A stretch of 12,620 nt of DNA from the IMG/VR virus record IMGVR_UViG_3300024518_000024, positions 1-12,620 of that record. One strand, written 5' to 3'. The translations under genes were made by a program, and so were the position numbers. The stretch is from a virus. The notes beneath the pieces are model-generated. The model did no database searches, was not told where the DNA came from, and was given only the letters and a program-made list of their open reading frames with translations. Each line of letters begins with the position of its first letter. The stretch's first letter is position 1. Shown here piece after piece: positions 1 through 12,620 of this stretch.

Positions 1-122
1 ACTCCGAGATCGCAATCTGCAAGCTCAAATATGGGAAAAACTGGCACAAGGCCTACCGAGATCAAGTTATTTCAAACGTTAAAAAGAAACATTAGTTCTT
101 TCCCAAATACAGTTTATTTTAT
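1..122. repeat. Terminal direct repeat, copy A (identical to 12499-12620); marks a circular or terminally redundant 12,498-bp genome
   Basis: Base-by-base comparison: actccgagatcgcaatctgc...agtttattttat occurs at 1-122 and again at 12499-12620 (offset 12,498). Confidence 0.95.
3..95 (+). CDS. Duplicated 3' part of the 61-aa gene at 12408-12593 (partial, caused by the terminal repeat)
   Basis: In-frame translation SEIAICKLKYGKNWHKAYRDQVISNVKKKH* is identical to the C-terminus of ORF 12408-12593. It lies wholly inside the repeat. Confidence 0.6.
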   Translation, partial: SEIAICKLKYGKNWHKAYRDQVISNVKKKH

Positions 123-426
123 CAATCCTGCTTTTCTTACATATAGGGAAGTCTGCTCTTGTGAATTGCCCTGTTTTCGTAGCACAACCCTTACAGAATA
201 ACATTTTGTGATATTTGCATTGATAATAGACATCAAACATCTCATTCTTACACCAAGAGCAATCCAATCCCGTTGAAACTGGCTCAGTAGAATCGGCAAT
301 GCCTTGAGCAACCTTGTTTTCAGAAGCTCTTCTTTCAGCTCTTAGCTTCTGCCTTGCTATCTCTTGAATGTGAGGACTGTTATCACCTTGCCACCTTTCG
401 ACATCAACACCCATCATCTCACTCAT
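79..426 (-). CDS. Cys-rich putative zinc-binding protein (115 aa), function unknown
   Basis: ORF track. The C-terminal half has CSWC-x12-CKYH-x5-CKGC-x15-C spacing typical of zinc-ribbon or treble-clef folds. Its ATG overlaps the upstream RHH gene stop (ATGA, 423-426), indicating a two-gene operon. Confidence 0.6.
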   Translation of the reverse strand: MSEMMGVDVERWQGDNSPHIQEIARQKLRAERRASENKVAQGIADSTEPVSTGLDCSWCKNEMFDVYYQCKYHKMLFCKGCATKTGQFTRADFPICKKSRIDKINCIWERTNVSF

Positions 427-665
427 TTCTTCACCTTCTTAAAAATCTTAGTTTTAAGCTTGTCAATATCCTGTAAACTCTTCATCTGTATATCTGCTCT
501 ACCTATCTCAAACTGCAACTCATCATCAGACATAAGGGCTGTGGGATCATCAGTCTTAAGGAAATGATCCTTAAGAACTTGATTAACCAAAGAAGAGGCA
601 TTCGACTCCTTTCTCAAACGTTCTGCTAATTCCTGATCAATCGAGAATATCTTGTTAGTCTTCAT
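423..665 (-). CDS. Ribbon-helix-helix (CopG/Arc/MetJ-like) transcription regulator, 80 aa
   Basis: The N-terminus KIFSIDQELAERLRKESNASSLVNQVLKDHF fits the beta-strand/helix/turn/helix RHH pattern. It is the first gene of the - strand unit, divergent from the structural operon across the repeat-rich intergenic region. Confidence 0.7.
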   Translation of the reverse strand: MKTNKIFSIDQELAERLRKESNASSLVNQVLKDHFLKTDDPTALMSDDELQFEIGRADIQMKSLQDIDKLKTKIFKKVKK

Positions 666-686
666 GTTTGTTAGTAGTTAGTTAAG

Positions 687-694
687 TATTTAAA
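687..694 (-). promoter_or_regulatory. TATA-box-like octamer TTTAAATA (read on - strand) ending 22 nt before the ATG at 665
   Basis: Plus strand tatttaaa at 687-694 reads TTTAAATA on the - strand. There is no Shine-Dalgarno between it and the ATG (aactactaacaaacATG). Four + strand sites share this geometry. Confidence 0.6.
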
Positions 695-731
695 TATATA
701 GGTAATAGATAGTAGTAGTAGTTGTAGAAAG

Positions 732-752
732 TTCCAGTGGAAATAGGGGGGT
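732..752 (+). promoter_or_regulatory. Archaeal ORB-like element (dyad TTCCA-G-TGGAA, then A-TA and a G6 string); candidate Orc1/Cdc6 binding site
   Basis: The sequence is TTCCAGTGGAAATAGGGGGGT. It has a short dyad plus a downstream G-string and sits next to the AT-rich stretch 666-730. As I remember it, the archaeal ORB resembles TCCACAGGAAACGGAGGGGT. Confidence 0.45.
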
Positions 753-799
753 GTTCCTCTACTACTCTTAATGACAAACCTTAATAACTTTGTTCACTA

Positions 800-819
800 T
801 TGAATCGTACACGATTCAA
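800..819. promoter_or_regulatory. Perfect inverted repeat TTGAATCGT-ac-ACGATTCAA flanked by TTCACT direct repeats; candidate operator
   Basis: The 9-bp arms at 800-808 and 811-819 are exact reverse complements. TTCACT occurs at 793-798 and 824-829 on either side. Confidence 0.5.
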
Positions 820-867
820 AGCATTCACTCATTATTAATGGCATTATATCGTTGCGTAGAGGTTTTA

Positions 868-1108
868 CTGTCACTCAGTGACAATTGTAGTACCTATATT
901 CAGTGACAGTGACAATGTAGTACCTAACCGTAGAGAGGCTCTAGAGGCCATATTTGGGTACTTCAGCCCTTATGCATTTTTCATTGTTACTAAGTGACAG
1001 TTACAATATATATGTCACTACAATTATGTTACAGTGACACTATTGGTTCGCTTAACTGTAACTCAGTGACAGTTACAAATCTGTCACTGTCACGTAGTAA
1101 CAGTGACA
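868..1108. repeat. Iteron-like array: 11 copies of GTGACA/TGTCAC plus related GTTACA/TGTAAC motifs, arranged as nested direct and inverted repeats
   Basis: GTGACA starts at 878, 903, 909, 994, 1034, 1066 and 1103. TGTCAC starts at 869, 1013, 1082 and 1088. A 20/21-nt direct repeat CAGTGACAA(T)TGTAGTACCTA lies at 876-896 and 907-926. The 13-mer GTGACAGTTACAA lies at 994-1006 and 1066-1078. Inverted repeats are TGTCAC-tca-GTGACA (869-883) and TGTAACT-cagtgac-AGTTACA (1057-1077). Confidence 0.85.
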
Positions 1109-1119
1109 CCGACGTTGTA

Positions 1120-1151
1120 GGGGGGGGGATAATGGGGGGGGGTCATCCCCC
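1120..1151 (+). repeat. Twin homopolymer tracts G9-ATAAT-G9 followed by TCAT-C5 (potential G-quadruplex or GC hairpin)
   Basis: Counted directly: G at 1120-1128, ATAAT at 1129-1133, G at 1134-1142, TCAT at 1143-1146, C at 1147-1151. Confidence 0.9.
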
Positions 1152-1161
1152 AGACAAAAAT

Positions 1162-1169
1162 ATTATATA
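1162..1169 (+). promoter_or_regulatory. TATA-box-like octamer ATTATATA ending 22 nt before the terminase ATG (1191), preceded by A-rich BRE-like acaaaaa
   Basis: The sequence is cagacaaaaatATTATATAgttaacagtattaggcgaacaATG. There is no Shine-Dalgarno before 1191. Confidence 0.6.
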
Positions 1170-1190
1170 GTTAACAGTATTAGGCGAACA

Positions 1191-2513: not shown

Positions 2514-2653
2514 CTGTGGAGAAACTGATTGAGGAGATGACTGCTATTAAGGTAGCATACCCAACTTTAGAGGTTTCTGAAGTTCTCCAAATATTTGAAA
2601 TACAAGCATTGAGGGAATTGACACTGATGTTGAGGAGGATTGCAAGTGGCTGA
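2510..2653 (+). CDS. Small hypothetical protein (47 aa), translationally coupled to terL
   Basis: My own translation is MTVEKLIEEMTAIKVAYPTLEVSEVLQIFEIQALRELTLMLRRIASG*. Its ATG overlaps the terL stop (ATGA at 2510-2513). It is below the ORF-track size cutoff. Confidence 0.35.
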   Translation: MTVEKLIEEMTAIKVAYPTLEVSEVLQIFEIQALRELTLMLRRIASG

Positions 2654-3017
2654 TTTAGGCACTCTAGCAACAACCGCCCAAGTCTTGCTAGCGATAGGGA
2701 ATGACGCAGGAACGGCACAAGTTTTAGAGGCCAATACTAATATTTGGATTCTAATGGCAGAAAGCGATATCGAAAAGCAATTTGGAGATAATGTGGGTAT
2801 TGTTGCAAACTACGCAAGCATAACCGCGGCAAACAAACAATGGTTAGCAATGGTGGCATCACATAGAGCTGCATTCTATGGAATTAACCAAGACCAAGGT
2901 AGTTGGCAATTATCAGTCAGTCAATCTAAATTAAATGTATGTGATTCTATATGGCAGGGTTTCATTTCAGACCTGAAGGACAATAAGGCCGATATAATTT
3001 CAGACTTAGGGCTATAA
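2640..3017 (+). CDS. Hypothetical virion protein (about 125 aa), possibly a head-tail adaptor
   Basis: ORF track (TTG start at 2640). GTG at 2646 sits 8 nt after GGAGG (2633-2637) and may be the real start. The protein is helical, about 14 kDa, and lies between terL and the portal. The adaptor role is a guess from size and position only. Confidence 0.55.
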   Translation: MQVADLGTLATTAQVLLAIGNDAGTAQVLEANTNIWILMAESDIEKQFGDNVGIVANYASITAANKQWLAMVASHRAAFYGINQDQGSWQLSVSQSKLNVCDSIWQGFISDLKDNKADIISDLGL

Positions 3018-3709
3018 TGGTATTACCCACACCCTTCACAACCTCTTCTCCAACAATAGCCACTTATGACTTTACTGAAATAGCGGAAGCCACGGGTTTC
3101 GTTACCTTCTATGGTAGTCAGTCAATAGATGACACAACCAAGACACACTTCCTTTCTTCTAATAAGACAAACTCCCAATTCATAGTAACCAAAGCAGCCC
3201 TATCCACAGAATCATTCTCCAAAGTTATTGACCTTGATTTTGATGTTCTCTTCAATCTTCCCCAAACTGTAAGGGGTACAGCTAGAGCTAACATAACAGT
3301 TGGCGGAGGTAACCTAGGTTCAGCAAATACAGTCGGTCAGGCATATGCGGTAATAAGGCTTAGGCATTGGGATGGTACAACAGAAACGGAGGTGGCGGAA
3401 GCACAAACCCATAAAATAGAATGGGCATCAAACGCCAACTATTCTGAAATAATGAACGTGGCTTTAGATGCAACTGCATCACAACATTATAAAAAAGGTG
3501 ACACCCTTAGAATGACAGTAGAGATATGGGGAAAGGTAGGCTCAGGTGCTAACGGTTCAGACTGTGGATTTGGACATGACCCAAACGAAAGAATAGACCC
3601 CGGACTTACTGAGGCAATACCCCCAGTTGCAGACACACAGGGGCAAGTAGTAACCGATGCAAACACAACTCAACTATCTTTCCTAATTCCCTTCAGATTA
3701 GAGGTATAA
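3017..3709 (+). CDS. Hypothetical structural protein, beta-rich, 230 aa
   Basis: ORF track. Its start overlaps the previous stop (TAATG). Composition is rich in T, S, G and N, as in beta-sandwich virion proteins. I recognise no family. Confidence 0.6.
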   Translation: MVLPTPFTTSSPTIATYDFTEIAEATGFVTFYGSQSIDDTTKTHFLSSNKTNSQFIVTKAALSTESFSKVIDLDFDVLFNLPQTVRGTARANITVGGGNLGSANTVGQAYAVIRLRHWDGTTETEVAEAQTHKIEWASNANYSEIMNVALDATASQHYKKGDTLRMTVEIWGKVGSGANGSDCGFGHDPNERIDPGLTEAIPPVADTQGQVVTDANTTQLSFLIPFRLEV

Positions 3710-4786
3710 ATGTCACAATTCGACCAAAACAAAGGCACAACCACAGACTTCTCGGCAAATGTAGAAGACTTCATAGTAACATCAAAGGCCTTAGACATAG
3801 CCAGCCCTGTGTCAGGGGAATACTATTGGTACTTTGACAAAGCAACCACAAACTTCGGCTACTACCTAGAGATTCCAGAGATATTCTCAGCAGCCAACTC
3901 CTTAGCAACATGGGCTTTCGGGAGGGGATGGATAACACCAGACCTTAGAATGCAATCACAACTAGAACACGTTAAGGGTTCAGGCATAGACCACTTTGAT
4001 AAAATAGTATTTAATCATGAGATTGTTAAGCTAATTGTAGGGGATGCATTTGCTGAAGTTAAGAAGAGCAACGGCCTTATTGTTAATATTATACCCATCT
4101 CACCGGAAAGAGTAAGGATAGTCTTTGGAAAATCTGGATTGATTAAGCGTTATGATGCATGGAATAATCAAAAGTGGGTTCCTATCAAAGTAGAGAATAT
4201 GTTACATAGTAGAAACAAACCAATCGGTGACAGCGTACATGGACAGAGCCAAGTCGAGCCAGCTAAGTTTATTATAGATGCAAGGAATGAGGCTTTGGCT
4301 GATGAGCGTGTTATCAAGCATAGAGATAAGGCCTTAGGTATTGTTTATTACAAAACGAACAACGCCGGAAAGATAACATATACAAACAGTCAGATAGAGA
4401 AGGCAGTGAACAAGGGGGAGATGCTCGGGCTGCCTGAAGACACAGCTAAGATAGACCCATATCCAAGTAGAAGCAGCGAAGACCGAACAGCATGGATAAG
4501 CTACCTTGAAAACTTCTTTTATCAAGTGTTCGGTGTACCGAGAAGTATTGCAACGAGTGACGGAACGAGTGAGGTGGGTGGTAAGATGGGTCACGTTATC
4601 TTTGAACCGGTATATGTTAAGGAGCAAAAGGACTTCGAGGCAGACCTATTGTTACAGCACTCAATCAAAGTACTATTCAATAGACCTCCTAGCTTAGGGG
4701 GATTGGCTGCTGAAACAGAGCAAAAGAATACCGGACAAACTAGCATTCAACCAAATGATGTGGAGGCATCTATAACAAGAGAATAA
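3710..4786 (+). CDS. Portal protein (HK97/PF04860-like pattern), 358 aa
   Basis: GDAFAEVKKSNGLIVNIIPISPERVRIVFGKSGLIKRYDAW...MLHSRN...GDSVHGQSQVEP and YLENFFYQVFGVPRSI match the conserved portal pattern as I recall it (G.ay...l.pl.p..v...g.i..Y...vlH...G.S and ia.afgvP..l). GAGGT lies 9 nt before the ATG. Confidence 0.75.
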   Translation: MSQFDQNKGTTTDFSANVEDFIVTSKALDIASPVSGEYYWYFDKATTNFGYYLEIPEIFSAANSLATWAFGRGWITPDLRMQSQLEHVKGSGIDHFDKIVFNHEIVKLIVGDAFAEVKKSNGLIVNIIPISPERVRIVFGKSGLIKRYDAWNNQKWVPIKVENMLHSRNKPIGDSVHGQSQVEPAKFIIDARNEALADERVIKHRDKALGIVYYKTNNAGKITYTNSQIEKAVNKGEMLGLPEDTAKIDPYPSRSSEDRTAWISYLENFFYQVFGVPRSIATSDGTSEVGGKMGHVIFEPVYVKEQKDFEADLLLQHSIKVLFNRPPSLGGLAAETEQKNTGQTSIQPNDVEASITRE

Positions 4787-5841
4787 TGCCACATACACGT
4801 GAACACTTTGCAACGGGTACAACAAACCCGAATGCACCAATCCCAATACTGCCCTCAGAAATAGAAGGGCAGGATTTCAGTGTCGATACTGGGAGAGAGG
4901 ATTGTGAAAGACTGGGAGGTACATGGGACGCAGCAGCAAGAATATGCAGGGGTGCTGAATCAAGACCCCCTTTCGACCCAGCACCATTCACACCGGAGAT
5001 AATTAGAGCAGGTAAGGGAGAGCGTAATGAAGGCAGAATAACAGGTACTACGTTACCAGATGGTTCTACATTCTTTGGCAACGAAGCTGAAATAAGGGAC
5101 TTAGTGGGGAAGAGAGTACAACAATTAACTGACCCCTCAGGCTCACAACCGGCTGGTACAACTAGGACTAATATTGAGATTGGAAGGGAGCAATCTTTAT
5201 TGCAATCTCAGGGTGCACAACTAGCGCAACAAGTCGGGCAGATAAGCCCATCAACTGGCATCACTCCAACAAACTTATCTCAAACTGATGCTATTACTGC
5301 TGGTGTCATGAATTCAATACCTAGAGCTTTGGGTTTAGCTGCGGGATATGCTGCAATAGGTGGTGCAGCAGGTTTAGCAACAGGCCCAGCAGCACCAGTT
5401 GTAAGTCCGGCCTTAGCAATAGCAGGTGCAACTGCAGGTCTTGTACAAGGAATAGGGGGGGGAATGATTAGCAATATGAGAGGACAGAGGACAGACAACA
5501 CCAACGCACAACAAAGGGTTCTTGATGAGGGTAAGCAAACCCTGAAGGATTGGAGTACCTTAGCGAAGGCCGACCCAGCAAACAGGGAGTTTTACTTATC
5601 ACAGTTTAACGTACAACTTCAATTAATACAAGATGCTCATGTTCAGATGCTAACCGATACAAACGCAGATGTGGCCAAGTTTGAAAGTGCGGTTCCCAAC
5701 CTAGCTGAGTTTAATTCGTTCTACTCAGCAGGGGGAGAGAGGGATGCCTTAGTTGAGGACATGAGAATATCCCTAACCACACCAGTGAGTATTGAGTATG
5801 CTATGGTAGAGCTGACAACTAGGAGAGCAAATGATATCTGA
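4786..5841 (+). CDS. Hypothetical protein with a central Gly/Ala-zipper membrane-like segment (351 aa); possible internal, ejection or membrane-active virion protein
   Basis: ORF track. Residues ALGLAAGYAAIGGAAGLATGPAAPVVSPALAIAGATAGLVQGIGGGMI form two hydrophobic glycine-zipper stretches. The C-terminal third is helical. The start overlaps the portal stop (TAATG). Confidence 0.6.
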   Translation: MPHTREHFATGTTNPNAPIPILPSEIEGQDFSVDTGREDCERLGGTWDAAARICRGAESRPPFDPAPFTPEIIRAGKGERNEGRITGTTLPDGSTFFGNEAEIRDLVGKRVQQLTDPSGSQPAGTTRTNIEIGREQSLLQSQGAQLAQQVGQISPSTGITPTNLSQTDAITAGVMNSIPRALGLAAGYAAIGGAAGLATGPAAPVVSPALAIAGATAGLVQGIGGGMISNMRGQRTDNTNAQQRVLDEGKQTLKDWSTLAKADPANREFYLSQFNVQLQLIQDAHVQMLTDTNADVAKFESAVPNLAEFNSFYSAGGERDALVEDMRISLTTPVSIEYAMVELTTRRANDI

Positions 5842-5968: not shown

Positions 5969-5989
5969 CTAGCTGTGTCAGGTAAGAGT

Positions 5990-6319
5990 ATGACTGAAAA
6001 TGAACAGACAGATAAGACTAACACCGTTGGAGATGACACTGATTCTAAACCTGCGGTTGCTGAGGCAGATAAACCCGTATCTATTGTGGAAGAAGCTCGT
6101 GCAATCAGAGATGAGATTAAGAAAGAAAGGGAGAAACTCGATGAGGCGAACAAGACCTCGCAGAAAATCCAAGCGGAAAATCTATTAGGTGGCTCAGCTG
6201 GTGGTCACGTTGAAGCAGTTAAGGTTTCCCCTGAAGTCCAGAAGGCAAAGGATGCAGCAACGTTTTTCAAAGGGACACAACTAGAAGAGGACATTAAGAA
6301 AGCCAATGAACAAAGCTGA
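5990..6319 (+). CDS. Acidic, helical scaffold-like protein (109 aa from ATG 5990; the ORF track opens at GTG 5975)
   Basis: The protein is highly charged with coiled-coil character (EEARAIRDEIKKEREKLDEANKTSQKIQAE) and lies upstream of the decoration and capsid genes. No prohead protease is present, which fits a separate scaffold. The function is assigned from position and composition. Confidence 0.5.
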   Translation: MTENEQTDKTNTVGDDTDSKPAVAEADKPVSIVEEARAIRDEIKKEREKLDEANKTSQKIQAENLLGGSAGGHVEAVKVSPEVQKAKDAATFFKGTQLEEDIKKANEQS

Positions 6320-6455
6320 ATGGAAAGACCAGAAAAAGATACTGGTTAAACACCTAGAAACAGCTGAAAAGAACAGAAAGACAGCTAACGACCAAATAGA
6401 TGAGCTAACTCTAACTATCTCAGCATACGATGAGAAAATCAAAACATTTAAATAA
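6306..6455 (+). CDS. Small coiled-coil hypothetical protein (49 aa)
   Basis: My own translation is MNKAEWKDQKKILVKHLETAEKNRKTANDQIDELTLTISAYDEKIKTFK*. It overlaps the scaffold-like gene end by 14 nt and fills an otherwise non-coding gap. Confidence 0.4.
   Translation: MNKAEWKDQKKILVKHLETAEKNRKTANDQIDELTLTISAYDEKIKTFK
6447..6454 (+). promoter_or_regulatory. Canonical TATA-box-like octamer TTTAAATA ending 22 nt before ATG 6476 (decoration and capsid genes)
   Basis: The sequence is atcaaaacaTTTAAATAatccgttcaccgaataactctATG. There is no Shine-Dalgarno and the upstream flank is A-rich. Confidence 0.55.
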
Positions 6456-6475
6456 TCCGTTCACCGAATAACTCT

Positions 6476-6874
6476 ATGGCTAACGAAGCGGTGTGCATTG
6501 AGACCCCTACAAGATTTGCAAGAAGGGTGATAGCAACAGGAACCGCGATACCTTTTGGTTCTATTATGCAGATTTCTAGTGACCCGGACACAGTGACTAT
6601 TTCTGATGGGGATAATGTTTTTGGTGGAATTAACTGGACACCTATACTGGCAACTGATACCTTTACTGAAATTACTGTGGCTTTGAATGGTACATGGGAT
6701 ATCAAGGATTCCGGAGCAGGTATGGCTATTGGAAACAAGTGCTCAGTTAATGGAGTTAATTTGGTTAAGACATTAATAGAGGCAGATACAGTTTTAGGTA
6801 AGGAAGTAGGTAAGGTTTTAGAGACAGCTAGCGCTAGTGAAGTTGTTAGAGTTAGAGTGGGGTCAGGTGAATAA
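6476..6874 (+). CDS. DUF2190-like head decoration or cement protein, 132 aa
   Basis: The pattern GTAIPFGSIMQIS...VFGGINW...ITVALNGTWDIK...GMAIGNKCSVNG...LGKVLETASASEVVRVRV matches the DUF2190 (PF09956) layout as I remember it. The gene lies immediately upstream of the capsid gene. Confidence 0.55.
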   Translation: MANEAVCIETPTRFARRVIATGTAIPFGSIMQISSDPDTVTISDGDNVFGGINWTPILATDTFTEITVALNGTWDIKDSGAGMAIGNKCSVNGVNLVKTLIEADTVLGKEVGKVLETASASEVVRVRVGSGE

Positions 6875-6960
6875 TGATAGATGAAGAAAAGAACACAACG
6901 GAAGAAGAAGGGAAGGATGAAAGCGATACTGAACAATCGACCGAAGGAGAGGAGGAATAA
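6874..6960 (+). CDS. Tiny, highly acidic ORF (28 aa) coupled at both ends (TAATG...TAATG); may only be a translated spacer
   Basis: My own translation is MIDEEKNTTEEEGKDESDTEQSTEGEEE*. The start overlaps the stop at 6872-6874 and the stop overlaps the capsid ATG at 6960. It contains the GGAGAGGAGG ribosome-binding site of the capsid gene. Confidence 0.2.
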   Translation: MIDEEKNTTEEEGKDESDTEQSTEGEEE

Positions 6961-7832
6961 TGGTAGCAGGTAGCGAGTTAGTAAACACAGACTTACGTAA
7001 GGAGTTCATAGATTCAGCAGTTAAGGCAGTTGTTAAGATTGAAGAGAAGTGGAAAGCCATGTGTACAATCGATAGTTCTTCAGCATGGACAGAATCATAT
7101 TTTAGAGAAACAAATGATGATTCCACTGATACAGGAACCGGGAGCCCAATGAAAGGATTAAGAGAATACGCGCCTTTCCCATTCATTGATGTAACGGAAA
7201 CAAAGGTTAGTTCCGTGATTGACAAGTATGCAGGGGAAAGCATTATTTCCTTGGAAGCCCAGTCAAACATCACAGTCCCTATGCTTCAAAGAAAGATTTA
7301 TAGGATTGGAAGAAAGATAATCTACCAAGTTGATGTAGCTATTGAAGCAAGTGTTAGCACAAACGCAGGTAACACCGTAGCAATCGGAGCAGGCAACGAG
7401 TGGGATTCTGCAACCATTGCTAACAGAGACCCGATTAAGGATGTTGCAGATGCGATTCAGACTTTAAGAGCTGACGGTATTGATGCCTTAGATGGCTCCG
7501 GCTTGTTAGTTGTTAATGGGACTGATTACACAAATATCATTACAAACACAAAGGTACTGAACCACCCAACATTCAAGGAAGTCTCCGCTATAAAGAACGG
7601 TAGAGTGAATATGCTGATGGGTCTTACTGTAGTTATAAGTGAAGCAGTCCAACCAGACCAAGCTTATGTTCTAGTTCAAAAGAAAGGTATGGTATGGAAA
7701 GCTGCCGAAGGAATGAAGGTTGTTACAACTGAAGAGCCGGGTAAGTGGACAACTATCCGGGCATGGGAGCGTGGTGTGTTTCAACTTCAGGCACCTAACG
7801 AGGTTTGTAAACTTACAAACACGAGGGCTTAG
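6960..7832 (+). CDS. Major capsid protein, HK97 fold (290 aa)
   Basis: It has the strongest Shine-Dalgarno in the genome (GAAGGAGAGGAGG). The motif layout NEWDSATIANRDPIKDVADAIQTLRADGIDALDGSGLLVVNGTDYTNI resembles the PF05065 pattern (W....dp..di..ai..l...g..p..ivmn..). Its position after the scaffold and decoration genes also fits. Confidence 0.7.
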   Translation: MVAGSELVNTDLRKEFIDSAVKAVVKIEEKWKAMCTIDSSSAWTESYFRETNDDSTDTGTGSPMKGLREYAPFPFIDVTETKVSSVIDKYAGESIISLEAQSNITVPMLQRKIYRIGRKIIYQVDVAIEASVSTNAGNTVAIGAGNEWDSATIANRDPIKDVADAIQTLRADGIDALDGSGLLVVNGTDYTNIITNTKVLNHPTFKEVSAIKNGRVNMLMGLTVVISEAVQPDQAYVLVQKKGMVWKAAEGMKVVTTEEPGKWTTIRAWERGVFQLQAPNEVCKLTNTRA

Positions 7833-7834
7833 CT

Positions 7835-8017
7835 ATGACACACGAGGGTAGGATGGCTCGCGGGAAGGAGAAAATTTCTAAAGGCATTAAAGATATTGAA
7901 ACTGAATACTATGAAGCTAACCAAGAAGTCGTACCTATTACAACTCCGGGTTATCCTAAGATGATTACAGCTATAGCAAAGAAGGAGAAGAAAAATGTCA
8001 AACCCAAGTCAGGATGA
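7835..8017 (+). CDS. Small basic hypothetical protein (60 aa)
   Basis: ORF track. GAGGG lies upstream of the ATG. No family recognised. Confidence 0.5.
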   Translation: MTHEGRMARGKEKISKGIKDIETEYYEANQEVVPITTPGYPKMITAIAKKEKKNVKPKSG

Positions 8018-8192
8018 GTTATACCCTAAGCATCTTGTAATTCCTCAGTACACAACTGCTGAGCGTAACGCTCTGATTGCAGATGTTGGCACCTTAATCT
8101 ATGATTCTACCCAAGATAAGTTAGCATTCTGTAAGGCTAAAGCTGCTGCTGCTGCTAGCTGGGAACTGATTACAAGCGTGGAGGAATCATAA
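7995..8192 (+). CDS. Small hypothetical protein (65 aa) with a fibre-like motif
   Basis: GAAGGAG lies 8 nt upstream of the ATG. LVIPQYTTAERNALIADVGTLIYDSTQDKLAFC...W resembles a motif I associate with N-terminal regions of some tail-fibre-like proteins, which is memory-based and weak. It contains an Ala run encoded by (GCT)5 at 8142-8156. Confidence 0.55.
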   Translation: MSNPSQDELYPKHLVIPQYTTAERNALIADVGTLIYDSTQDKLAFCKAKAAAAASWELITSVEES

Positions 8193-9023
8193 ATGGCCAC
8201 CACAGACATCTATCATATAACTGGTGGGCTTAAAGGCAGGAATGCAGTCATGTTTATTGATGGAGATACAGATGACTACGTACAAGTGAACGCTCACGCT
8301 GTGGCTAGAGTTGCGGCTAACGATACTGTTGGTACTTACAGCGCCTGGGTTAACATCATTAATATTGCTGATACGTTTACTGTCTTAGGAGCAGGTGATG
8401 CTAATGTTGTTGAATTTCTAGAGTTGAACATTGAAGCAGGTCTCTTGACTGCAAGGTGTACTGATGGGACAGTTGCCCAGTTTGTAACTCAAGCTGATGC
8501 TATTGGTTTTAAACCCCACAGATGGTATCACGTTGCAATGGTGCAGAATGCTAACGGGCAGGGAGTACACCTGTATATTGATGGAGAAAAGATAGCCTCA
8601 ACCAATGACACAACAACAGATGTGGATGAGTGGTATAATAATTTGGATGGTATTGATACGTTTAGAATTGGAGCAGCAAACAAAGCAGGGAATGATTCAG
8701 TGACTAATGAAATTACTGGTGGGATTAGTGACGTGAAGTATTGGAGTACAAACCTCACAGACACAGAGGTAAAGAATGATTTTCTTGGGGAAGCAGTGCA
8801 GGCCTCAGCATTACAGCTGCATATAGATTTTGTGGATGACTTGGTTGATGCTGGGCTGGGAGCAGATGATGGCACTATTGTTGGTGCAGTACTTCAATCA
8901 AATAATTATTGTGAGTTTACCTCAAGATTAAGAAATAGCACGGGCACGCCCGTTGTAGCCGATACCGTTCAATGTTTTGCCTCCGGGGAAACCGGGCACG
9001 CTGTGGTGATTCAGGCGGCCTAA
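8193..9023 (+). CDS. LamG / concanavalin-A-like lectin-fold protein (Laminin_G_3-like), 276 aa; probable carbohydrate-binding virion appendage
   Basis: TYSAWVNI...HRWYHVAMVQNANGQGVHLYIDGEKIAS...FRIGAANKAG...GGISDVKYWSTNLTDTEVKNDF is the classic LamG_3 (PF13385) signature. GGAGG lies upstream of the ATG. Confidence 0.75.
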   Translation: MATTDIYHITGGLKGRNAVMFIDGDTDDYVQVNAHAVARVAANDTVGTYSAWVNIINIADTFTVLGAGDANVVEFLELNIEAGLLTARCTDGTVAQFVTQADAIGFKPHRWYHVAMVQNANGQGVHLYIDGEKIASTNDTTTDVDEWYNNLDGIDTFRIGAANKAGNDSVTNEITGGISDVKYWSTNLTDTEVKNDFLGEAVQASALQLHIDFVDDLVDAGLGADDGTIVGAVLQSNNYCEFTSRLRNSTGTPVVADTVQCFASGETGHAVVIQAA

Positions 9024-9024
9024 C

Positions 9025-10917
9025 TTGGCACGCAACCCTTTGATACGACCGCGCAATATTTCTAAAGGCAAGCCAATGCCTACTCGTTCAGCTGGAATAT
9101 TAGATGACCATGCTCTGAGAAAGACTATTGCCACAAAGCAGGGCACTATAGAGCACGTACCCGCTAATGATTCTGATATTGCAAATAAGAAATACGTGGA
9201 TGGTGGGACTTACTTGACAGCTGGTGAGGGGATTGATATTACCGGCACAACTATTTCTGGAGAAGATTCAACAAGTTCTAATAAAGGAATCGTGACGATA
9301 ACTGGAGGCAATGGGATAGATGTTGAATACCCTGTTGATGGGCTGGCCGCAATCTCCGGAGAGCTGGCAACAGATACAAACACAGGCATTGCTAGATTTG
9401 ATGCTACTGGGTTCACAGTCACCGGAGGAAATGTTGTAATCAACGACATTTACGTCTTCAACTCAGGAGACACAATGACGGGACAATTAATTGTTCAGTC
9501 TGGCAACGGTAAAATCGTCACTTCTAATTCTTCTGGCTCTATTGATGTGCAGGATTCAAGTGGAAATGCTGGAAGCATAAGTTTTGGAAACACAGCAGAC
9601 ATTGGAATAAGCAATGATGGAGTGAGCGGTGGTTATGATTATGATGGAGCATTTATTCTAAAACAAAAAACCTCACAACCGGCAGAGAGAGGAGAGTTTA
9701 TCTTTATTGAACAAGGAGGAGATTGGAGATTTGCAATACCTAAGAGTGAGGCAGGAGTGGGGACATACAATCCGAGAAGCATGATTATTGCAGGACCCAG
9801 TACCAACATGACAACAAACTTTCAAGCTTCACATTGGGGATTCACTAACCTAGCTATGGACACAAGCGGAGATGGAGCAGACTTAGGGGTACAAAATGAT
9901 TGTGAAATCTTAGGGGATTTATTTGTTGGAGGGGCAACAGACTTATCTGGAAATATTGATATGAATGAAAACAATATTACAAATATAGGAGATCTAGATG
10001 GTGGTACTGCATTAAATCTTGTAGCAAGTCTATTTCTAACATTCAAATCTCCGGTAATTACATTGGGAGATGGTACTCTTTCGAGTGTTGGCTTATCATT
10101 CAACACAAGCGCAACAGATGGAACAATAACTTTTAATGGAACAAGTGGACAATACGATTTTGACAATCCAATAGACATGAACACGAATAAAATTGTTGGA
10201 GTTGTGGACCCAACCGCAGACCAAGAAGTCGCAACTAAAAAGTATGTTGATGACAACGACCATAGCTCTGTCACAATGTCTGGAACTCCGAACTACATAA
10301 CTCTTGTCGGGCAGGATATTGTGAGAGGCACGGTTGATATATCAGACGATACAAACCTCGCAGTCACAGCCCCAATTGTCTTAACAGGAGATACAGTTTC
10401 GGTAAGCACAACAACCTCAAGCGCTGTTGGAGTAATTGAGTTAGCAACGGAGGACGAAGTCCAAACCGGAACAGACACAACAAGAGCAGTAACCCCAGAC
10501 ACATTGCAATCTATTGCTCCCCCAATCGGAACGGTTATGGCATGGCTAAAATCCTATACTTCAACTCCCGCAACTCTACCGACTGGATGGGTGGAAGCAG
10601 ACGGCGCAACATTAAGCGATGCGGACTCTGTTTATGATGGACAGGTACTTCCCGATCTGAACGGAGGGATATTCTTGAGAGGAAACACAACTTCGGGAGC
10701 AACTGGAGGAAGCTCAACCCATAGATTAACAACGGCTGAAATGCCATCTCACATTCACACAGTTTCTACGAAAGTAGTGGCGGCATCTCCAGCAGGATTG
10801 GGTGGCGTTGCTTTCACAGGAGCCAACACAGTTAATACAAGTTCAACCGGTGGAGATACGGCCCACGAGAACAGACCTCCCTTCTATGATATTGTTTGGA
10901 TAATGAGAATAAAATGA
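9025..10917 (+). CDS. Tail fibre / receptor-binding protein with C-terminal phage tail-collar domain (630 aa from TTG 9025; alternative ATG at 9076)
   Basis: The C-terminus PIGTVMAWLKS...LPTGWVEADGATLS...VLPDLNGGIFLRG...GGSSTHRLTTAEMPSHIHT fits the tail-collar / MdpB-like family (PF07484). (A/V)(N/T)KKYVD occurs twice. VGVIELATEDEVQTGTDTTRAVTPDTL is a common fibre motif. Confidence 0.85.
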   Translation: MARNPLIRPRNISKGKPMPTRSAGILDDHALRKTIATKQGTIEHVPANDSDIANKKYVDGGTYLTAGEGIDITGTTISGEDSTSSNKGIVTITGGNGIDVEYPVDGLAAISGELATDTNTGIARFDATGFTVTGGNVVINDIYVFNSGDTMTGQLIVQSGNGKIVTSNSSGSIDVQDSSGNAGSISFGNTADIGISNDGVSGGYDYDGAFILKQKTSQPAERGEFIFIEQGGDWRFAIPKSEAGVGTYNPRSMIIAGPSTNMTTNFQASHWGFTNLAMDTSGDGADLGVQNDCEILGDLFVGGATDLSGNIDMNENNITNIGDLDGGTALNLVASLFLTFKSPVITLGDGTLSSVGLSFNTSATDGTITFNGTSGQYDFDNPIDMNTNKIVGVVDPTADQEVATKKYVDDNDHSSVTMSGTPNYITLVGQDIVRGTVDISDDTNLAVTAPIVLTGDTVSVSTTTSSAVGVIELATEDEVQTGTDTTRAVTPDTLQSIAPPIGTVMAWLKSYTSTPATLPTGWVEADGATLSDADSVYDGQVLPDLNGGIFLRGNTTSGATGGSSTHRLTTAEMPSHIHTVSTKVVAASPAGLGGVAFTGANTVNTSSTGGDTAHENRPPFYDIVWIMRIK

Positions 10918-11105
10918 AAAAGCAAAAACTAATAAAAAACATCGAATATATTTTAGATTGCTTGGAAGCTGATAAGAAAACTGCATCCCACAATGAGAAG
11001 GAAACCAACGCTATCGTCGATAGAATGATTGATTTTCAGATTCTATACCACCAATATGCAGGGCATTACTATCACCGAAAAGTATATAAAGACTTACTTA
11101 CTTAG
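10914..11105 (+). CDS. Small hypothetical protein (63 aa from ATG 10914; the ORF track opens at TTG 10896)
   Basis: The ATG overlaps the fibre stop (ATGA at 10914-10917). It is the last gene of the structural block. Confidence 0.5.
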   Translation: MKKQKLIKNIEYILDCLEADKKTASHNEKETNAIVDRMIDFQILYHQYAGHYYHRKVYKDLLT

Positions 11106-11111
11106 TAAGTC
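11083..11111 (+). promoter_or_regulatory. TATA-like octamer TATATAAA (11083-11090) followed directly by a perfect 8-bp-stem palindrome GACTTACT-tactt-AGTAAGTC (11091-11111) that abuts ATG 11112
   Basis: The octamer ends 22 nt before ATG 11112 and is preceded by ccgaaaa (BRE-like). I checked the palindrome pair by pair. It fills the whole TATA-to-start interval. Confidence 0.55.
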
Positions 11112-11279
11112 ATGACAATAAAAACATTAAACCTAAATTATTCCTTAACTAATTTTAATTCAATGAAGAAGAAGAAGGATATGTATGAGAAATTAAAGGG
11201 AAAGATTAGCTGGGAAGATTTTGTTTTCATGTGCACCGTCACCTATTTTCCTAAAGATGAGAAGGAGGTGAAAAAATGA
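11112..11279 (+). CDS. Small hypothetical protein (55 aa), first gene of the non-structural module
   Basis: My own translation is MTIKTLNLNYSLTNFNSMKKKKDMYEKLKGKISWEDFVFMCTVTYFPKDEKEVKK*. The stop overlaps the next ATG (ATGA at 11276-11279). The promoter-like box sits at the conserved distance. Confidence 0.45.
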   Translation: MTIKTLNLNYSLTNFNSMKKKKDMYEKLKGKISWEDFVFMCTVTYFPKDEKEVKK

Positions 11280-11575
11280 ATTGTAATAAATGCGGAATTG
11301 GACAGATGGCTTTGAAGTCAGGAAGGAACGGGCAGTTTATGGCCTGTGACCAGTATCCTCAATGCAAGAATACTGAGAACGTGGCACCGGGAACGCCAAT
11401 AATTCCACAAGCAACTGCACCAGCTAAGGAATACCACTTAAGCCCTGAAGAAGTAAATGCTAGAGCCTTGGAAGCTGCTATTAATTGCTCAGACATGGAG
11501 CAGAGACAGCAAACCAATCAATTACTAGACTTAGCTAATGTGTTTGTCAAGTACATAATGGGGAATGGGTACTAA
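11276..11575 (+). CDS. Topoisomerase-type C4 zinc-finger DNA-binding protein (99 aa)
   Basis: CNKCGIGQMALKSGRNGQFMACDQYPQCKNT matches the zf-C4_Topoisom pattern (C.CG..m......G.F.gC..yP.C). A strong Shine-Dalgarno AAGGAGGTG is present. Confidence 0.7.
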   Translation: MNCNKCGIGQMALKSGRNGQFMACDQYPQCKNTENVAPGTPIIPQATAPAKEYHLSPEEVNARALEAAINCSDMEQRQQTNQLLDLANVFVKYIMGNGY

Positions 11576-11916
11576 TGAAAGGACACAGCAGGAATAAGGT
11601 TGCTAAGAAGGAGCTGGAAGCACAGAAGGAATGGAGAAGGCAAGTATTGGAGAGAGATGGCCATAAGTGTCAGATTTGTGACCCTAGTGTTGTTGCTAAA
11701 AGGCTCAATGTCCATCATCTCATCCCGAGGGGAATTAAAGAATATCGGTGGGATGTGGACAATGGAATGACCTTGTGTGTCAGGCATCACACGCTTGGCA
11801 CGTTTTCAGCACATAAACATCCTTTTTGGTTTGTGAATTGGTTATGGAAAACCAAACCAAAGATATACTTTCAAATGGAAAGAAGGAACGCTCTAGCATA
11901 TTCGGAGGCTGGTTGA
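11575..11916 (+). CDS. HNH endonuclease (113 aa)
   Basis: GHKCQIC...LNVHHLIPR...DVDNGMTLCVRHH is a canonical HNH motif with flanking Cys pairs. The start overlaps the previous stop (TAATG). Confidence 0.85.
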   Translation: MKGHSRNKVAKKELEAQKEWRRQVLERDGHKCQICDPSVVAKRLNVHHLIPRGIKEYRWDVDNGMTLCVRHHTLGTFSAHKHPFWFVNWLWKTKPKIYFQMERRNALAYSEAG

Positions 11917-11965
11917 TGGTTCACCAGACGAACCCTGACATCCCGGAAAGACGGGAATTATAATC

Positions 11966-12202
11966 ATGGGAGAAACAGCAGAATTCGTAAAGGAGTTCAA
12001 TAAAGAAAAAAGTTTAAGCGAGAAGATTGAATGCGGAATAGTCCCTTGTGATGAAAAACTGCATAGGAAATCATTGAAAGCAACAGATGTACGAGAAGCG
12101 GTGCGGAGGTTGAAGCAAGCGACAGAGGAAGGACATGACGATTGGAATCTAAGTACAATGCTTAAAGAAATTGATGAGATATTCGGGGAAGCTCTCACAT
12201 GA
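11966..12202 (+). CDS. Hypothetical protein (78 aa), paralog A of a tandem pair
   Basis: It shares K(S/P)LSEK, EAVRRLK and LKE(I/L)(D/N)EIFGE blocks with the next ORF. Nucleotide identity is visible too (gtgcggaggttgaag in both). Confidence 0.6.
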   Translation: MGETAEFVKEFNKEKSLSEKIECGIVPCDEKLHRKSLKATDVREAVRRLKQATEEGHDDWNLSTMLKEIDEIFGEALT

Positions 12203-12417
12203 AACCACTGAGTGAGAAGGTCTTTGATGCAAAAGGGACGTGCTACACGGGTAAAGTCATTGAGGCCTGCAATGTTGCTGAGGCTGTGCGGAGGTTGAAG
12301 GAATTAACAAAGTCATGGATATTTGGAGAAGGCCCGTTTATGATAAACGAAGATAACATTGACGAGTACCTTAAGGAATTGAACGAGATATTCGGGGAGA
12401 TGAGAGAATGGGGATAA
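12199..12417 (+). CDS. Hypothetical protein (72 aa), paralog B of a tandem pair
   Basis: See paralog A. The ATG overlaps the paralog A stop (ATGA at 12199-12202). Confidence 0.6.
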   Translation: MKPLSEKVFDAKGTCYTGKVIEACNVAEAVRRLKELTKSWIFGEGPFMINEDNIDEYLKELNEIFGEMREWG

Positions 12418-12593
12418 CACCAAACAATCTCATGCTTGAGCGTGTGATCATGAAAAGAATGCAGGAACTATTAGATCAAGGTGAAGGGGAGCTCATAGAC
12501 TCCGAGATCGCAATCTGCAAGCTCAAATATGGGAAAAACTGGCACAAGGCCTACCGAGATCAAGTTATTTCAAACGTTAAAAAGAAACATTAG
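12408..12593 (+). CDS. Hypothetical protein (61 aa); its 3' end lies in the terminal repeat and converges on the - strand Zn-binding gene
   Basis: ORF track. It overlaps the preceding gene by 10 nt. On the circular map its last 17 nt overlap the 3' end of the - strand gene (coordinates 79-95). Confidence 0.5.
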   Translation: MGITPNNLMLERVIMKRMQELLDQGEGELIDSEIAICKLKYGKNWHKAYRDQVISNVKKKH

Positions 12594-12620
12594 TTCTTTC
12601 CCAAATACAGTTTATTTTAT
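12499..12620. repeat. Terminal direct repeat, copy B (identical to 1-122)
   Basis: See copy A. Confidence 0.95.

Follow-up and report, generated by a model that had tools for sequence, protein, structure and literature searches.

Isolates of tailed viruses with genomes of 11.6–11.7 kb have been described, and tailed phages assembled from metagenomes show a known minor peak at 12.6 kb (PMC7762592). Small DTR-bearing HK97 genomes have already been catalogued, and no description was found of the family presented here or of its origin. As for replication signals, the Origin Recognition Box (ORB) of Archaea follows the consensus CTTCCAGTGGAAACGAAAGGGGT (PMC4153887; PMC1868953). A single full ORB shows good binding in vitro, and Cdc6 was not bound stably by a single short mini-ORB in vivo (PMC1904270). 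Given the described isolates and the 12.6-kb peak, the genome in the window (the whole 12,620-nt stretch of DNA analysed here) is of extreme size, yet with precedent. New with respect to the first-pass annotation are an archaeal host and an ORB, close to the Archaea consensus, in the non-coding region. It is rather likely that the window represents the complete dsDNA genome of a minimal, autonomous archaeal virus of the HK97 class (Caudoviricetes-type), replicated by means of the Orc1/Cdc6 and replisome of its host.

Genome closure and family

Sequence self-comparison shows that positions 1–122 and 12499–12620 are 100% identical, with a spacing of 12,498. The junction from 12620 to 1 is read through in two independent assemblies from samples other than that of the window, L072 (ENA ERZ27250004, MEGAHIT contig k141_4470, 12,883 nt) and L075 (Logan SRR7615941). 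Each of them contains the 122 nt only once, so that this terminal direct repeat is an assembly overlap and does not reflect a chimera. The molecule behind it is circular, circularly permuted or concatemeric. A third sample with an identical genome sequence is L073 (JGI 3300024520). The window is thereby confirmed as a real and complete genome, a closed 12,498-bp unit, as first claimed, and no continuation into other sequence was found as far as the tools allowed.

At least five IMG/VR relatives also self-close, at 11,191–12,076 bp, and the longest homologue-bearing contigs pile up at 11–13 kb. A search with the capsid protein retrieved 1,623 protein clusters (E<=1e-10). The family to which the virus belongs is large, uncultured and found worldwide, and its genomes measure about 11.2–12.5 kb. 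Family genes are also carried by outlier contigs of 21, 23, 49 and 72 kb, as would be expected if the closed unit were an assembly artefact or a piece of a larger genome. Nevertheless, such an origin is extremely improbable, because this genome was assembled concordantly three times, from different samples and with different assemblers (two of the assemblies span the junction), five relatives circularise independently with differing break points, and the size distribution ends at ~13 kb. In addition, the point at which the 21-, 49- and 72-kb outliers depart from contigs closing or spanning the circle lies within the fibre gene.

Structural operon and virion proteins

Approximately 8.5 kb form a single rightward operon from TerL through the fibre gene (+ strand), and another ~3 kb hold small, fast-evolving genes (HNH, Zn-ribbon and regulators) and a non-coding control region of ~525 nt. 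The earlier assignments of TerL, portal, HK97-type capsid, decoration, LamG and collar-type fibre proteins are all upheld by profile matches, weakly in the case of the decoration protein. The large terminase subunit TerL (440 residues, 1191–2513) matches Pfam Terminase_6N (2.8e-16) and phrog_2 (5.7e-36), and its lowest E-value among GenBank viruses (2e-20) is obtained with the archaeal Halogranum tailed virus 1. It is followed by a 47-residue ORF (2510–2653), called as a gene in L072–L075 and without a match in the Pfam scan, and by the core gene g05 (123–125 residues, 2646–3017), kept in 30+ loci. The position of g05 suggests a putative head-tail adaptor/connector; PDB and PHROG profile searches gave no assignment. 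The portal protein (358 residues, 3710–4786) has a PF04860 match precomputed for an identical protein, a phrog_2662 match (2.4e-4) and portal 8cez as its single PDB profile match, and PF04860 is matched by 19 of the 24 members of its family (best E 5.6e-17).

Further downstream, g09 (5990–6319), called as a gene and kept in 37 loci, encodes a charged, helical protein of 109 residues. Position and composition fit the scaffold-like role given to it before, and Pfam and PHROGs hold no family match. The decoration/cement protein (132 residues, 6476–6874), whose gene is kept in 49 loci, matches Phage_cement_2 at 8.1e-4, under the curated cut-off, and its relatives match PF09956 weakly. The HK97-fold major capsid protein (290 residues, 6960–7832) is identified by phrog_1650 (6.8e-18) and PF25209 Phage_capsid_4. 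The small proteins encoded 3′ of it (7835–8192), g12 (60 residues) and g13 (65 residues, kept in 26 loci), have sub-threshold PHROG matches only and are putative virion-associated proteins.

Structure prediction, which had been called for in the case of the two largest unassigned genes, gave a jelly-roll for g06 and a helical protein for g08, and no replication fold. The core gene g06 (230 residues, 3017–3709) yielded an AlphaFold2 model (pLDDT 88.6, pTM 0.84) with a TNF/C1q-like jelly-roll beta-sandwich, which is neither a Rep nor a polymerase fold. Its top Foldseek matches are jelly-roll domains, some from phage tail-fibre proteins, at TM values of about 0.45–0.5, and the model resembles fibre knobs, suggesting a putative virion-surface or tail-knob type protein. 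The alignment of the core gene g08 (351 residues, 4786–5841) exhibits an N-terminal domain with a Cys pair, Gly/Ala-rich hydrophobic helices and a conserved C-terminal helical bundle. The AlphaFold2 model (pLDDT 75.5) is all-alpha beyond residue 100 and found no significant fold match in Foldseek. Within the family, 8 of 25 members match phrog_1047 'tail associated lysin', and three tape-measure PHROGs together collect 6 member-hits. This helical, tape-measure-like membrane protein may have an ejection (pilot) role.

The operon ends with a LamG/concanavalin-like lectin-fold protein (276 residues, 8193–9023; Laminin_G_3, 1.4e-14), a putative adhesin, and with the fibre (613–630 residues, 9025–10917), matching phrog_8469 (2.6e-13), the tail-collar phrog_1800 (5.9e-11) and Gp10_C (1.3e-3). 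The fibre comprises a family-conserved N-terminus of ~60 residues, to which conservation in relatives is limited, a variable shaft and a collar/Gp10_C-like C-terminus. The particle would be podovirus-like, with a very small capsid (the genome size is consistent with a published T=3 prediction), a portal with few small proteins and fibres, and no tube, the DNA-delivery channel being formed by the hydrophobic g08 protein.

No ORF of the window showed a significant match to replication, integration, protease, tail-tube, tape-measure or lysis families in Pfam, PHROGs and NCBIfam. Polymerase, primase, helicase, Rep and integrase, as well as prohead protease, tail tube and endolysin, were likewise absent by profile searches, profile-versus-PDB searches and AlphaFold2/Foldseek of g06 and g08. 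The gene set therefore lacks recognisable replication, integrase, protease, tail-tube and lysis genes, as originally reported, and as far as the tools allowed it hides no polymerase, primase or Rep. Neither tRNAs nor Rfam families occur in the window. Since no tail adaptor, nozzle or tube was identified in it either, "tailed" (from portal and fibre) and "autonomous" are inferred. The virion-forming HK97-class set holds by its profile matches.

The absence of tail-tube, baseplate, lysis and replication genes, together with a genome size within the satellite range, would also suit a capsid-forming satellite comparable to cf-PICIs or P4, which builds its own small head, packages itself and takes tail parts, lysis and perhaps replication from a larger helper. 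Three larger contigs have fibre sequence in common with family genomes, including those of 49 and 72 kb, which share it with relatives of 11.7–12.0 kb. However, related genomes and larger contigs diverge within this hypervariable gene and sister contigs close the circle, a pattern expected of assembly cross-overs. We regard a satellite as quite unlikely, considering that the genome encodes a fibre of its own, whose anchor is conserved in the family, as well as LamG, jelly-roll and tape-measure-like proteins, that it lacks an integrase and any recognisable gene for helper interference, that the ORB indicates replication by the host rather than by a helper, and that the very large family varies little in genome size.

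Promoters and host

TATA-like boxes with a leaderless geometry precede several genes. That of TerL and the structural operon (1156–1170, + strand) ends ~20 nt before the ATG, and L010, L018, L048, L051 and L058 have comparable boxes ahead of TerL. The late promoter AAAACATTTAAATAA (BRE/TATA; 6441–6455, + strand) ends 20 nt before the decoration ATG. Upstream alignment revealed five genes of the window whose box stops ~20 nt short of the start codon, among them g02 (20 nt) and g17, which has its own box 20 nt upstream. In the family, 30 of 39 decoration genes have a box ending 16–24 nt before the ATG, compared with 64 of 5000 random positions (1.3%). Transcription would rely on the host RNA polymerase with TBP/TFB.

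These boxes and leaderless starts, the ORB, the archaeal resolvase Hjc encoded in relatives, the archaeal top match of TerL and the MAG/NCBI labels of relatives (Nanoarchaeota twice, Pacearchaeota twice, 'archaeon' and Methanosarcinales) together indicate an archaeal host. The binning labels point to an ultra-small DPANN lineage (Nanoarchaeota/Pacearchaeota) as the probable one. Other labels name CPR bacteria (Saccharibacteria, Parcubacteria) and Hydrogenedentota, which could mean a phage of ultra-small bacteria (CPR/Patescibacteria). This is very unlikely in view of the ORB elements, the BRE/TATA boxes ~27 nt upstream of leaderless starts, the archaeal Hjc and the lowest-E-value TerL match to an archaeal virus, and short viral contigs are easily mis-binned.

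Control region and small genes

The window holds one strong ORB, GTTCCAGTGGAAATAGGGGGGT (731–752, + strand), in which TTCCAGTGGAAA is exact and the G-string is also present. It scores 26.6 with the PWM, compared with a mean of 6.8 and a maximum of 20.1 in shuffles, and differs from the Methanomassiliicoccales consensus GTTCCAGTGGAAATGG-AGGGGTA (PMC4153887) at 2 of 22 positions by direct comparison. Of 72 sequences, 27 contain ORB-class sites, compared with none of the shuffles, and nearly all of these sites lie 5′ of TerL. They form clusters upstream of TerL in some relatives and inverted pairs in L046 and L035, the latter with two pairs enclosing ~100 nt of AT-rich DNA. In the window, the ORB adjoins an AT-rich spacer (666–730) that includes the TATA box of g02 (about 686–700, minus strand) and is a candidate unwinding region (DUE). 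The host Orc1/Cdc6 would bind the ORB beside this stretch, followed by MCM loading, and the cellular replisome would copy the circular genome, so that no viral initiator or polymerase would be needed. The ORB is most likely why the window needs no replication gene, although the presence of only one strong site counts against this reading in the light of the published mini-ORB result. In closed or near-complete relatives inspected, non-structural ORFs do not exceed ~200 residues, and the accessory genes identified encode methyltransferases, Hjc, RusA and HNH, and no initiators.

Three closed relatives (L003, L019 and L061) have no ORB-class site whatever, which means that the family as a whole cannot rely on the ORB as its origin and must also use some other mechanism. 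A 130-residue protein, winged-helix-like by eye, is common to ORB-less loci (5 ORB-negative and 0 ORB-positive loci), which hints at small virus-encoded origin binders in the family. An initiator of this kind, recruiting host MCM/primase from ORB-like dyads or from TGTCAC palindromes, could also serve the window, its likeness to cellular ORBs then being mimicry or coincidence and host Orc1/Cdc6 remaining unused. Several small proteins of DNA-binding type adjoin the control region, candidates being g18, g01/g02, g20–g22 and the winged-helix-like proteins of relatives, and operator-like palindromes lie at 864–1109. We hold this to be unlikely for the window, whose ORB departs from a published cellular consensus at only 2 of 22 positions, shares its asymmetric G-string and belongs to a motif that is conserved where the small-gene module is not. 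Moreover, no accessory protein family tracks the ORB, the commonest reaching 6 of 15 ORB-positive loci, which argues for a host factor rather than a viral ORB-binder.

The palindromes (TGTCAC-N3-GTGACA, at least four sites; repeat D2 and inverted repeat I1) are placed between the ORB and the TerL promoter. They would set transcription timing together with the divergent small regulators. They are followed by a conserved element, CCGACGTTG-N2-G9-ATAAT-G9-TCATCCCCCAGA (1109–1154, + strand), which recurs on the + strand ahead of TerL in over 20 distinct relatives, ORB-less genomes included, and is a candidate cos/pac site or origin-associated element. TerL and the HNH nuclease would cut and package unit genomes, possibly at this element in its general form CCGACGTTG-G9-N5-G9-TCATCCCCCAGA.

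The small-gene module is not conserved across relatives. Divergent from the structural operon lie g01 (79–426, minus strand; L072/L073/L075 likewise have a gene call here), which encodes a Cys-rich protein of 115 residues and putative Zn-binding regulator, and g02 (423–665, minus strand), an 80-residue putative repressor with a ribbon-helix-helix-like N-terminus by eye and homologues in L003 and L016. Neither of them, nor g16 and g17 (10896–11279, + strand), nor the tandem paralogues g20 and g21 (78 and 72 residues) and g22 (61 residues; 11966–12593, + strand, repeats D3 and D5), had a significant match in Pfam, PHROGs or NCBIfam. On the other hand, g18 (99 residues, 11276–11575, + strand) combines a topoisomerase-I-type C4 Zn ribbon (Zn_ribbon_Top1, 1.3e-13; NCBIfam matches limited to the topA C-terminal) with a helical tail, and is a putative small DNA-binding protein. 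The adjacent HNH endonuclease (113 residues, 11575–11916, + strand) matches phrog_8048 (7.9e-11), 20+ further HNH PHROGs and Pfam HNH (2.7e-4), and probably assists TerL in packaging. L016 carries its HNH gene directly 5′ of TerL, and L079 has a 100-residue gene at the equivalent position. Both the HNH nuclease and the Zn-ribbon protein had been overlooked in the earlier reading.

Closure and size of the genome

The window begins and ends with an identical stretch of 122 nt, which defines a unit of 12,498 bp; this unit had been taken as a complete closed genome in the first-pass annotation. This claim holds, since the junction is also crossed by contigs from other assemblies that carry the window genome itself. 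In L072 (ENA, a MEGAHIT contig of 12,883 nt in another rotation), window positions 11935-12620 run into position 1 and onwards with one copy of the 122 nt, and the Logan contig L075 reads through the junction likewise, with the 122 nt present once; two further contigs, L073 (JGI) and L074 (Logan), match the window at 99.97% identity or above. Because independent contigs cross the junction with a single 122-nt copy, the molecule present in the samples is a circle, a circularly permuted form or a concatemer. The terminal repeat is direct, not inverted, and the window holds neither a tRNA nor an Rfam family.

IMG/VR contains at least 64 loci related to the window, and five relatives with terminal overlaps of their own close at 11,191, 11,368, 11,727, 11,793, and 12,076 bp, with differing break points. 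The family, which amounts to 1,623 capsid-protein clusters at 90% identity, is also uniform in length: when a collection of 5.8 billion proteins was searched three times, the longest contigs with family proteins concentrated at 11–13 kb, and they never exceed 13.0 kb except for four outliers. Three of these outliers—L076 (21 kb), L026 (49 kb), and L079 (72 kb)—were inspected together with L023, which bears flanking cell-like genes and a GTPase gene. That these contigs represent a provirus or a larger genome was rejected, given that each of them splits inside the fibre gene (L026:11697-11826, L079:3171 and 15182, L023:5774, L076:9389) from a sister contig; those of L026 and L076 join or cross the circle, and that of L079 is a near-unit-length contig of 12.1 kb. 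Such departure points are the pattern expected if an assembler crosses between replicons sharing fibre sequence, and the four contigs are treated as assembly cross-overs or shared fibre modules. The C-termini of the fibres appear to be exchanged with another replicon, either a larger virus or a host surface protein. In L079, the reading frame upstream of the break encodes a giant, internally repetitive protein longer than 2,083 aa.

Virion genes and particle type

Every large gene of the window lies on the + strand. The presence of TerL, a portal and an HK97-fold capsid protein, which are features of Caudoviricetes (Duplodnaviria) and were proposed in the first-pass annotation, is corroborated by profile matches. 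TerL (1191-2513) is borne out by family matches (Terminase_6N, 2.8e-16; phrog_2, 5.7e-36), and the capsid protein (6960-7832) matches phrog_1650 (6.8e-18) and PF25209. The portal (3710-4786) is weak when taken alone but solid for the family as a whole; PF04860 is precomputed for an identical protein and occurs in 19 of 24 family members (best 5.6e-17), and the sole PDB profile match is a portal. The set further includes a weakly assigned decoration protein (6476-6874), a LamG protein (8193-9023) and a fibre with a collar-type C-terminus (9025-10917), as well as two genes previously overlooked, which encode a Top1-type Zn-ribbon protein (11276-11575) and an HNH endonuclease (11575-11916). The adjacent products g20 and g21 (11966-12417) are tandem paralogues with the common motifs EAVRRLK and LKEIDEIFGE (repeat families D3 and D5).

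The core conserved across the relatives comprises TerL, g05 (2646-3017), g06 (3017-3709), the portal, g08 (4786-5841), the scaffold-like g09 (5990-6319), the decoration and capsid proteins, and the first ~60 residues of the fibre, and it is accompanied by a variable module of ~3 kb made up of small genes. The family defines an HK97-class virion gene set of ~12–14 core genes in ~8.5 kb and constitutes a large natural set for the minimal gene content of such virions. The TerL of the relative L048 is 76% identical to that of the window, but its decoration and capsid genes (L048:6977-8259) have no BLAST match to those of the window, a discrepancy that suggests an exchange of head modules within the family. 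The N-terminus of g06 (PTIATYDFTEI) resembles a segment of the decoration protein (PILATDTFTEI), with 75% DNA identity over 32 nt (3050-3081 versus 6641-6672), which may reflect chance or a shared capsid-docking motif.

The absence of recognizable genes for replication, integration, prohead protease, tail tube or lysis, also noted in the first-pass annotation, persists after profile scans and after structure prediction and Foldseek searches for g06 and g08. No polymerase family was matched in any window ORF, the fibre being the only one longer than 440 aa. No integrase family was matched in the window ORFs either, and the matches in a genome collection are contigs of at most 8.2 kb, not shown as chromosomal insertions. 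AAA+/Orc1 families are likewise missing from the window ORFs, and the closed relatives inspected hold no ORF large enough for them; in the closed or near-complete relatives inspected, non-structural ORFs do not exceed ~200 aa. Key accessory proteins of the relatives were scanned singly, and the genes recognized among them encode C5 and Dam-like methyltransferases, the archaeal Hjc resolvase, RusA, and HNH. The accessory family that recurs most often (172 aa, 20 loci; e.g., L055:576-1094) has no Pfam match and no window homologue; like a 111-aa protein of the relative L076 (L076:11632-11967), it looks OB-fold/SSB-like by eye.

Profiles of g05, g06, and g08, built from alignments of relatives, gave nothing usable against PDB sequences. 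The AlphaFold2 model of g06, predicted with confidence (pLDDT 88.6), is a jelly-roll beta-sandwich, whose best Foldseek matches are jelly-roll domains, among them parts of phage tail-fibre proteins. The g08 protein combines a small domain with a Cys pair, hydrophobic helices rich in Gly/Ala and a conserved bundle of helices, and its model has no Foldseek match at E<0.1. Neither protein exhibits a polymerase, primase, helicase or Rep fold. In the hydrophobic segment of g08, eight of 25 family members match the PHROG 'tail associated lysin', and six member-hits are spread over three tape-measure PHROGs; g08 is read as an ejection or tape-measure-like protein.

Families of tube, sheath, baseplate, nozzle, adaptor, protease, and lysin proteins were not matched in the window ORFs, and no member of the g05 family matched an adaptor when scanned against PHROGs, so that a putative adaptor role for g05 is positional only. 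The tail-related features seen are the fibre, the LamG protein, the jelly-roll protein, and the tape-measure-like protein. Since the set conserved beyond the head and packaging genes consists of g05, g06, g08, small proteins and fibres with a conserved anchor, the particle is suggested to be podovirus-like or almost tail-less. The window length, like that of the smallest isolates, fits a predicted T=3 capsid (PMC7762592; PMC11476376), and the closed genomes of 11.2–12.5 kb coincide with the length predicted for tailed viruses with such capsids (PMC7762592); from size only, the family would thus have a T=3 HK97 capsid. When this prediction was published, no high-resolution reconstruction of a T=3 tailed capsid existed (PMC7762592). 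A gene transfer agent was also considered and rejected, since the unit is closed, packages itself, has a putative origin of its own, and occurs as many strains.

Archaeal-type promoters and the proposed origin box

In most relatives, the decoration gene is preceded by (A/G)AAACATTTAAATA(A/G), ending 20–21 nt before the ATG. A TATA-like box is found in this position for 30 of 39 decoration genes, compared to 64 of 5000 random positions. The same geometry is observed in the window for g02 (423-665, - strand), TerL, g09, the decoration gene, and g17 (within 10896-11279), while the internal genes have ribosome-binding sites of the GGAGG type. Leaderless starts with a TATA box centred ~27 nt upstream follow the archaeal, not the bacterial, arrangement. 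In addition, relatives carry Hjc (PF01870), and the best E-value of TerL among GenBank viruses is with Halogranum tailed virus 1. On these sequence grounds, the host of the family is archaeal. Capsid-gene matches in a species-level genome collection fall in bins labelled Nanoarchaeota (2), Pacearchaeota, 'archaeon', Methanosarcinales, and Saccharibacteria (2), and the NCBI names on family contigs include Pacearchaeota, Parcubacteria, and Hydrogenedentota, such labels being unreliable for short viral contigs. A DPANN host is the leading guess, not a result, and has about an even chance of being correct.

The non-coding region of 525 nt that separates the divergently read g02 and TerL genes contains, at 731-752, an Origin Recognition Box (ORB), GTTCCAGTGGAAATAGGGGGGT. 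By sequence comparison, it fits the published archaeal consensus sequences, which are CTTCCAGTGGAAACGAAAGGGGT for Archaea and GTTCCAGTGGAAATGG-AGGGGTA for Methanomassiliicoccales (PMC4153887), GTTCCAGTGGAAAC-AAA----GGGGG for Euryarchaea (PMC1868953), and TTCCAGTGGAACT for the Pyrococcus mini-ORB (PMC1904270). The variants in the family include TTCCAYAGGAAATGRAGGT and GTTCCAGTGGAAATAGGGGGGT. A strict ORB-plus-G-string pattern had no match in the relatives; a relaxed pattern was followed by a position weight matrix made from the family instances, with which the window box scores 26.6 (shuffles: mean 6.8, maximum 20.1). At a score of 15 or above, sites are present in 27 of 72 sequences and in none of the shuffles, nearly all of them 100–1500 nt upstream of TerL.

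Two to four sites each are found in the relatives L016, L035, L046, L050, L054, and L080. In L046, AT-rich DNA follows two inverted ORB pairs, and L035 has ~100 nt of AT-rich DNA flanked by two ORB pairs; judged by sequence, inverted pairs flanking AT-rich DNA are the textbook layout of oriC. The window holds one ORB, beside an AT-rich stretch, and three closed relatives have no site. Archaeal chromosomal and plasmid origins, with their ORBs, AT-rich unwinding element and orc1/cdc6 gene, are thus matched by a near-identical ORB and by the inverted pairs of the relatives; however, the window differs from them in being a viral replicon with a single ORB and no orc1/cdc6 gene, adjacent or elsewhere. 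The minimum of the cumulative GC skew falls within positions 1-1000, where the ORB lies, with a monotonic rise afterwards, although transcription confounds this pattern as the genes are nearly all on one strand.

If replication depends on the ORB and Orc1/Cdc6, the initiator would have to be that of the host, because no orc1/cdc6 gene is found in the window or in the closed relatives inspected. The fact that no accessory protein family is common to more than six of the 15 ORB-positive loci argues for a host-derived binding factor. Host Orc1/Cdc6 would recognise the window ORB and load MCM onto the adjacent AT-rich DNA, and the cellular replisome would then copy the circular viral genome, a route considered fairly probable. 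A 130-aa protein, winged-helix-like by eye (L030:3761-4153 and four other loci), is encoded in five ORB-negative and none of the 15 ORB-positive loci, and may be part of an alternative origin/initiator module. Replicon modules therefore seem exchangeable within the family, judging from the single ORB of the window, the ORB-less closed relatives and this protein in ORB-less loci. Carrying a consensus ORB but no initiator gene would amount to clear-cut origin mimicry, which predicts binding by host Orc1/Cdc6, and the ORB variant may help to link viruses with their archaeal host lineages in metagenomic data. The literature searched contains no report of a virus with consensus ORBs and no initiator gene; in one preprint, the absence of ORBs is used as an argument that a virus cannot replicate autonomously.

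Two other elements lie between the ORB and TerL. The first, CCGACGTTG-N2-G9-ATAAT-G9-TCATCCCCCAGA at 1109-1154, is directly upstream of the TerL TATA box. More than 20 distinct relatives (L001, L003, L040, L044, L046, L048, L050, L052, L054-L063, and L079-L081), with and without ORBs, share it at the corresponding site and in the window's orientation, with the family form CCGACGTT(G/C)-N3-5-G8-9-(A/T)3-5-G8-9-TCATCCCCCAGA. Given the HNH–TerL pair, it is an obvious candidate for a cos/pac site; an origin-linked or G-quadruplex role is an equally open candidate, and in relatives the element often abuts the ORB cluster. A G-quadruplex could arise from its two G-runs, and a hairpin from GGGGG-TCAT-CCCCC. 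The second consists of at least four palindromes TGTCAC-N3-GTGACA at 864-1109, which resemble operators bound by a dimeric regulator, with g02 as a possible candidate.

Relation to known small and archaeal viruses

The smallest tailed isolates are Mycoplasma virus P1 (11.7 kb) and Salmonella phage astrithr (11.6 kb), and 12.6 kb is a minor peak among tailed phages assembled from gut metagenomes (PMC7762592); the phi29-like Picovirinae reach ~17–20 kb (PMC7762592; PMC11476376). The window shares with the smallest tailed phages its genome-size class, HK97-type capsid, portal, and short-tail/fibre gene set, but it differs from the isolated ones in its archaeal host, as predicted here, and in lacking sequence likeness except for TerL (~23% identity). 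The phi29-like phages are linear and encode a protein-primed DNA polymerase, whereas the window has no polymerase and assembles as a circle. Mycoplasma P1 also replicates a linear genome by a protein-primed DNA polymerase. Such replication was rejected for the window, which lacks inverted terminal repeats and any match to a polymerase family.

Archaeal tailed viruses (of haloarchaea, methanogens, and the Asgard 'verdandiviruses' of ~19.5 kb) share with the window the HK97 capsid, portal, TerL, and archaeal promoters. However, the window lacks a recognizable tail tube, sheath, baseplate, and replication genes, and at ~12 kb it is shorter than Verda V2 (19.5 kb), the smallest RefSeq archaeal tailed virus mentioned (10.1101/2025.06.18.659913). 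The cf-PICI/P4 elements resemble it in size (10–15 kb), in HNH and TerL, and in the absence of a tail tube, and cf-PICIs have their own small-capsid and packaging genes; unlike them, the window has no integrase, no primase-helicase or Rep, was not found integrated, is archaeal, and carries its own fibre and adhesin.

Whole-genome megablast and capsid tblastn against 50,697 GenBank phage records returned nothing, and an exact-sequence look-up of the capsid protein found no match, whereas the g06 protein led to source-like contigs. The literature covered, outside which lies the work on DPANN viruses by Wu et al. (2024, Nat Microbiol), contains no description of archaeal tailed viruses of ~12 kb. 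The family is tentatively proposed as the smallest autonomous head-tail lineage of Archaea, possibly genome-reduced like its DPANN hosts, which would do without replication genes by means of a true cellular-type origin (ORB) fired by host Orc1/Cdc6 and would build a T=3 HK97 capsid. Whether viruses of CPR and DPANN underwent genome reduction like their hosts has been stated to be unclear (10.1101/2025.02.15.638363), a question on which the family bears directly. What is added to the first-pass annotation is the assignment of the host to Archaea, tentatively to DPANN, the large and uniform family, and a testable account of the missing replication genes.

Another parallel is offered by the 'twilight-zone' mini HK97 entities (Luque 2020; Aguilar 2025 preprint), metagenomic genomes of ~5–20 kb with direct terminal repeats (DTR) and HK97-fold capsids, which share with the window family the idea of missing T=3 tailed viruses. 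In a survey of thousands of DTR genomes below 20 kb, the dominant mini clade is encapsulin-like, is from the human gut, has ~8.9 kb, is temperate, and carries RepA/helicase and integrase genes without terminase, portal or tail genes (10.1101/2025.06.18.659913). The window family, predicted to be archaeal, differs in encoding TerL, portal, and fibre but neither Rep nor integrase. Some of its members are found in the marine Tara data.
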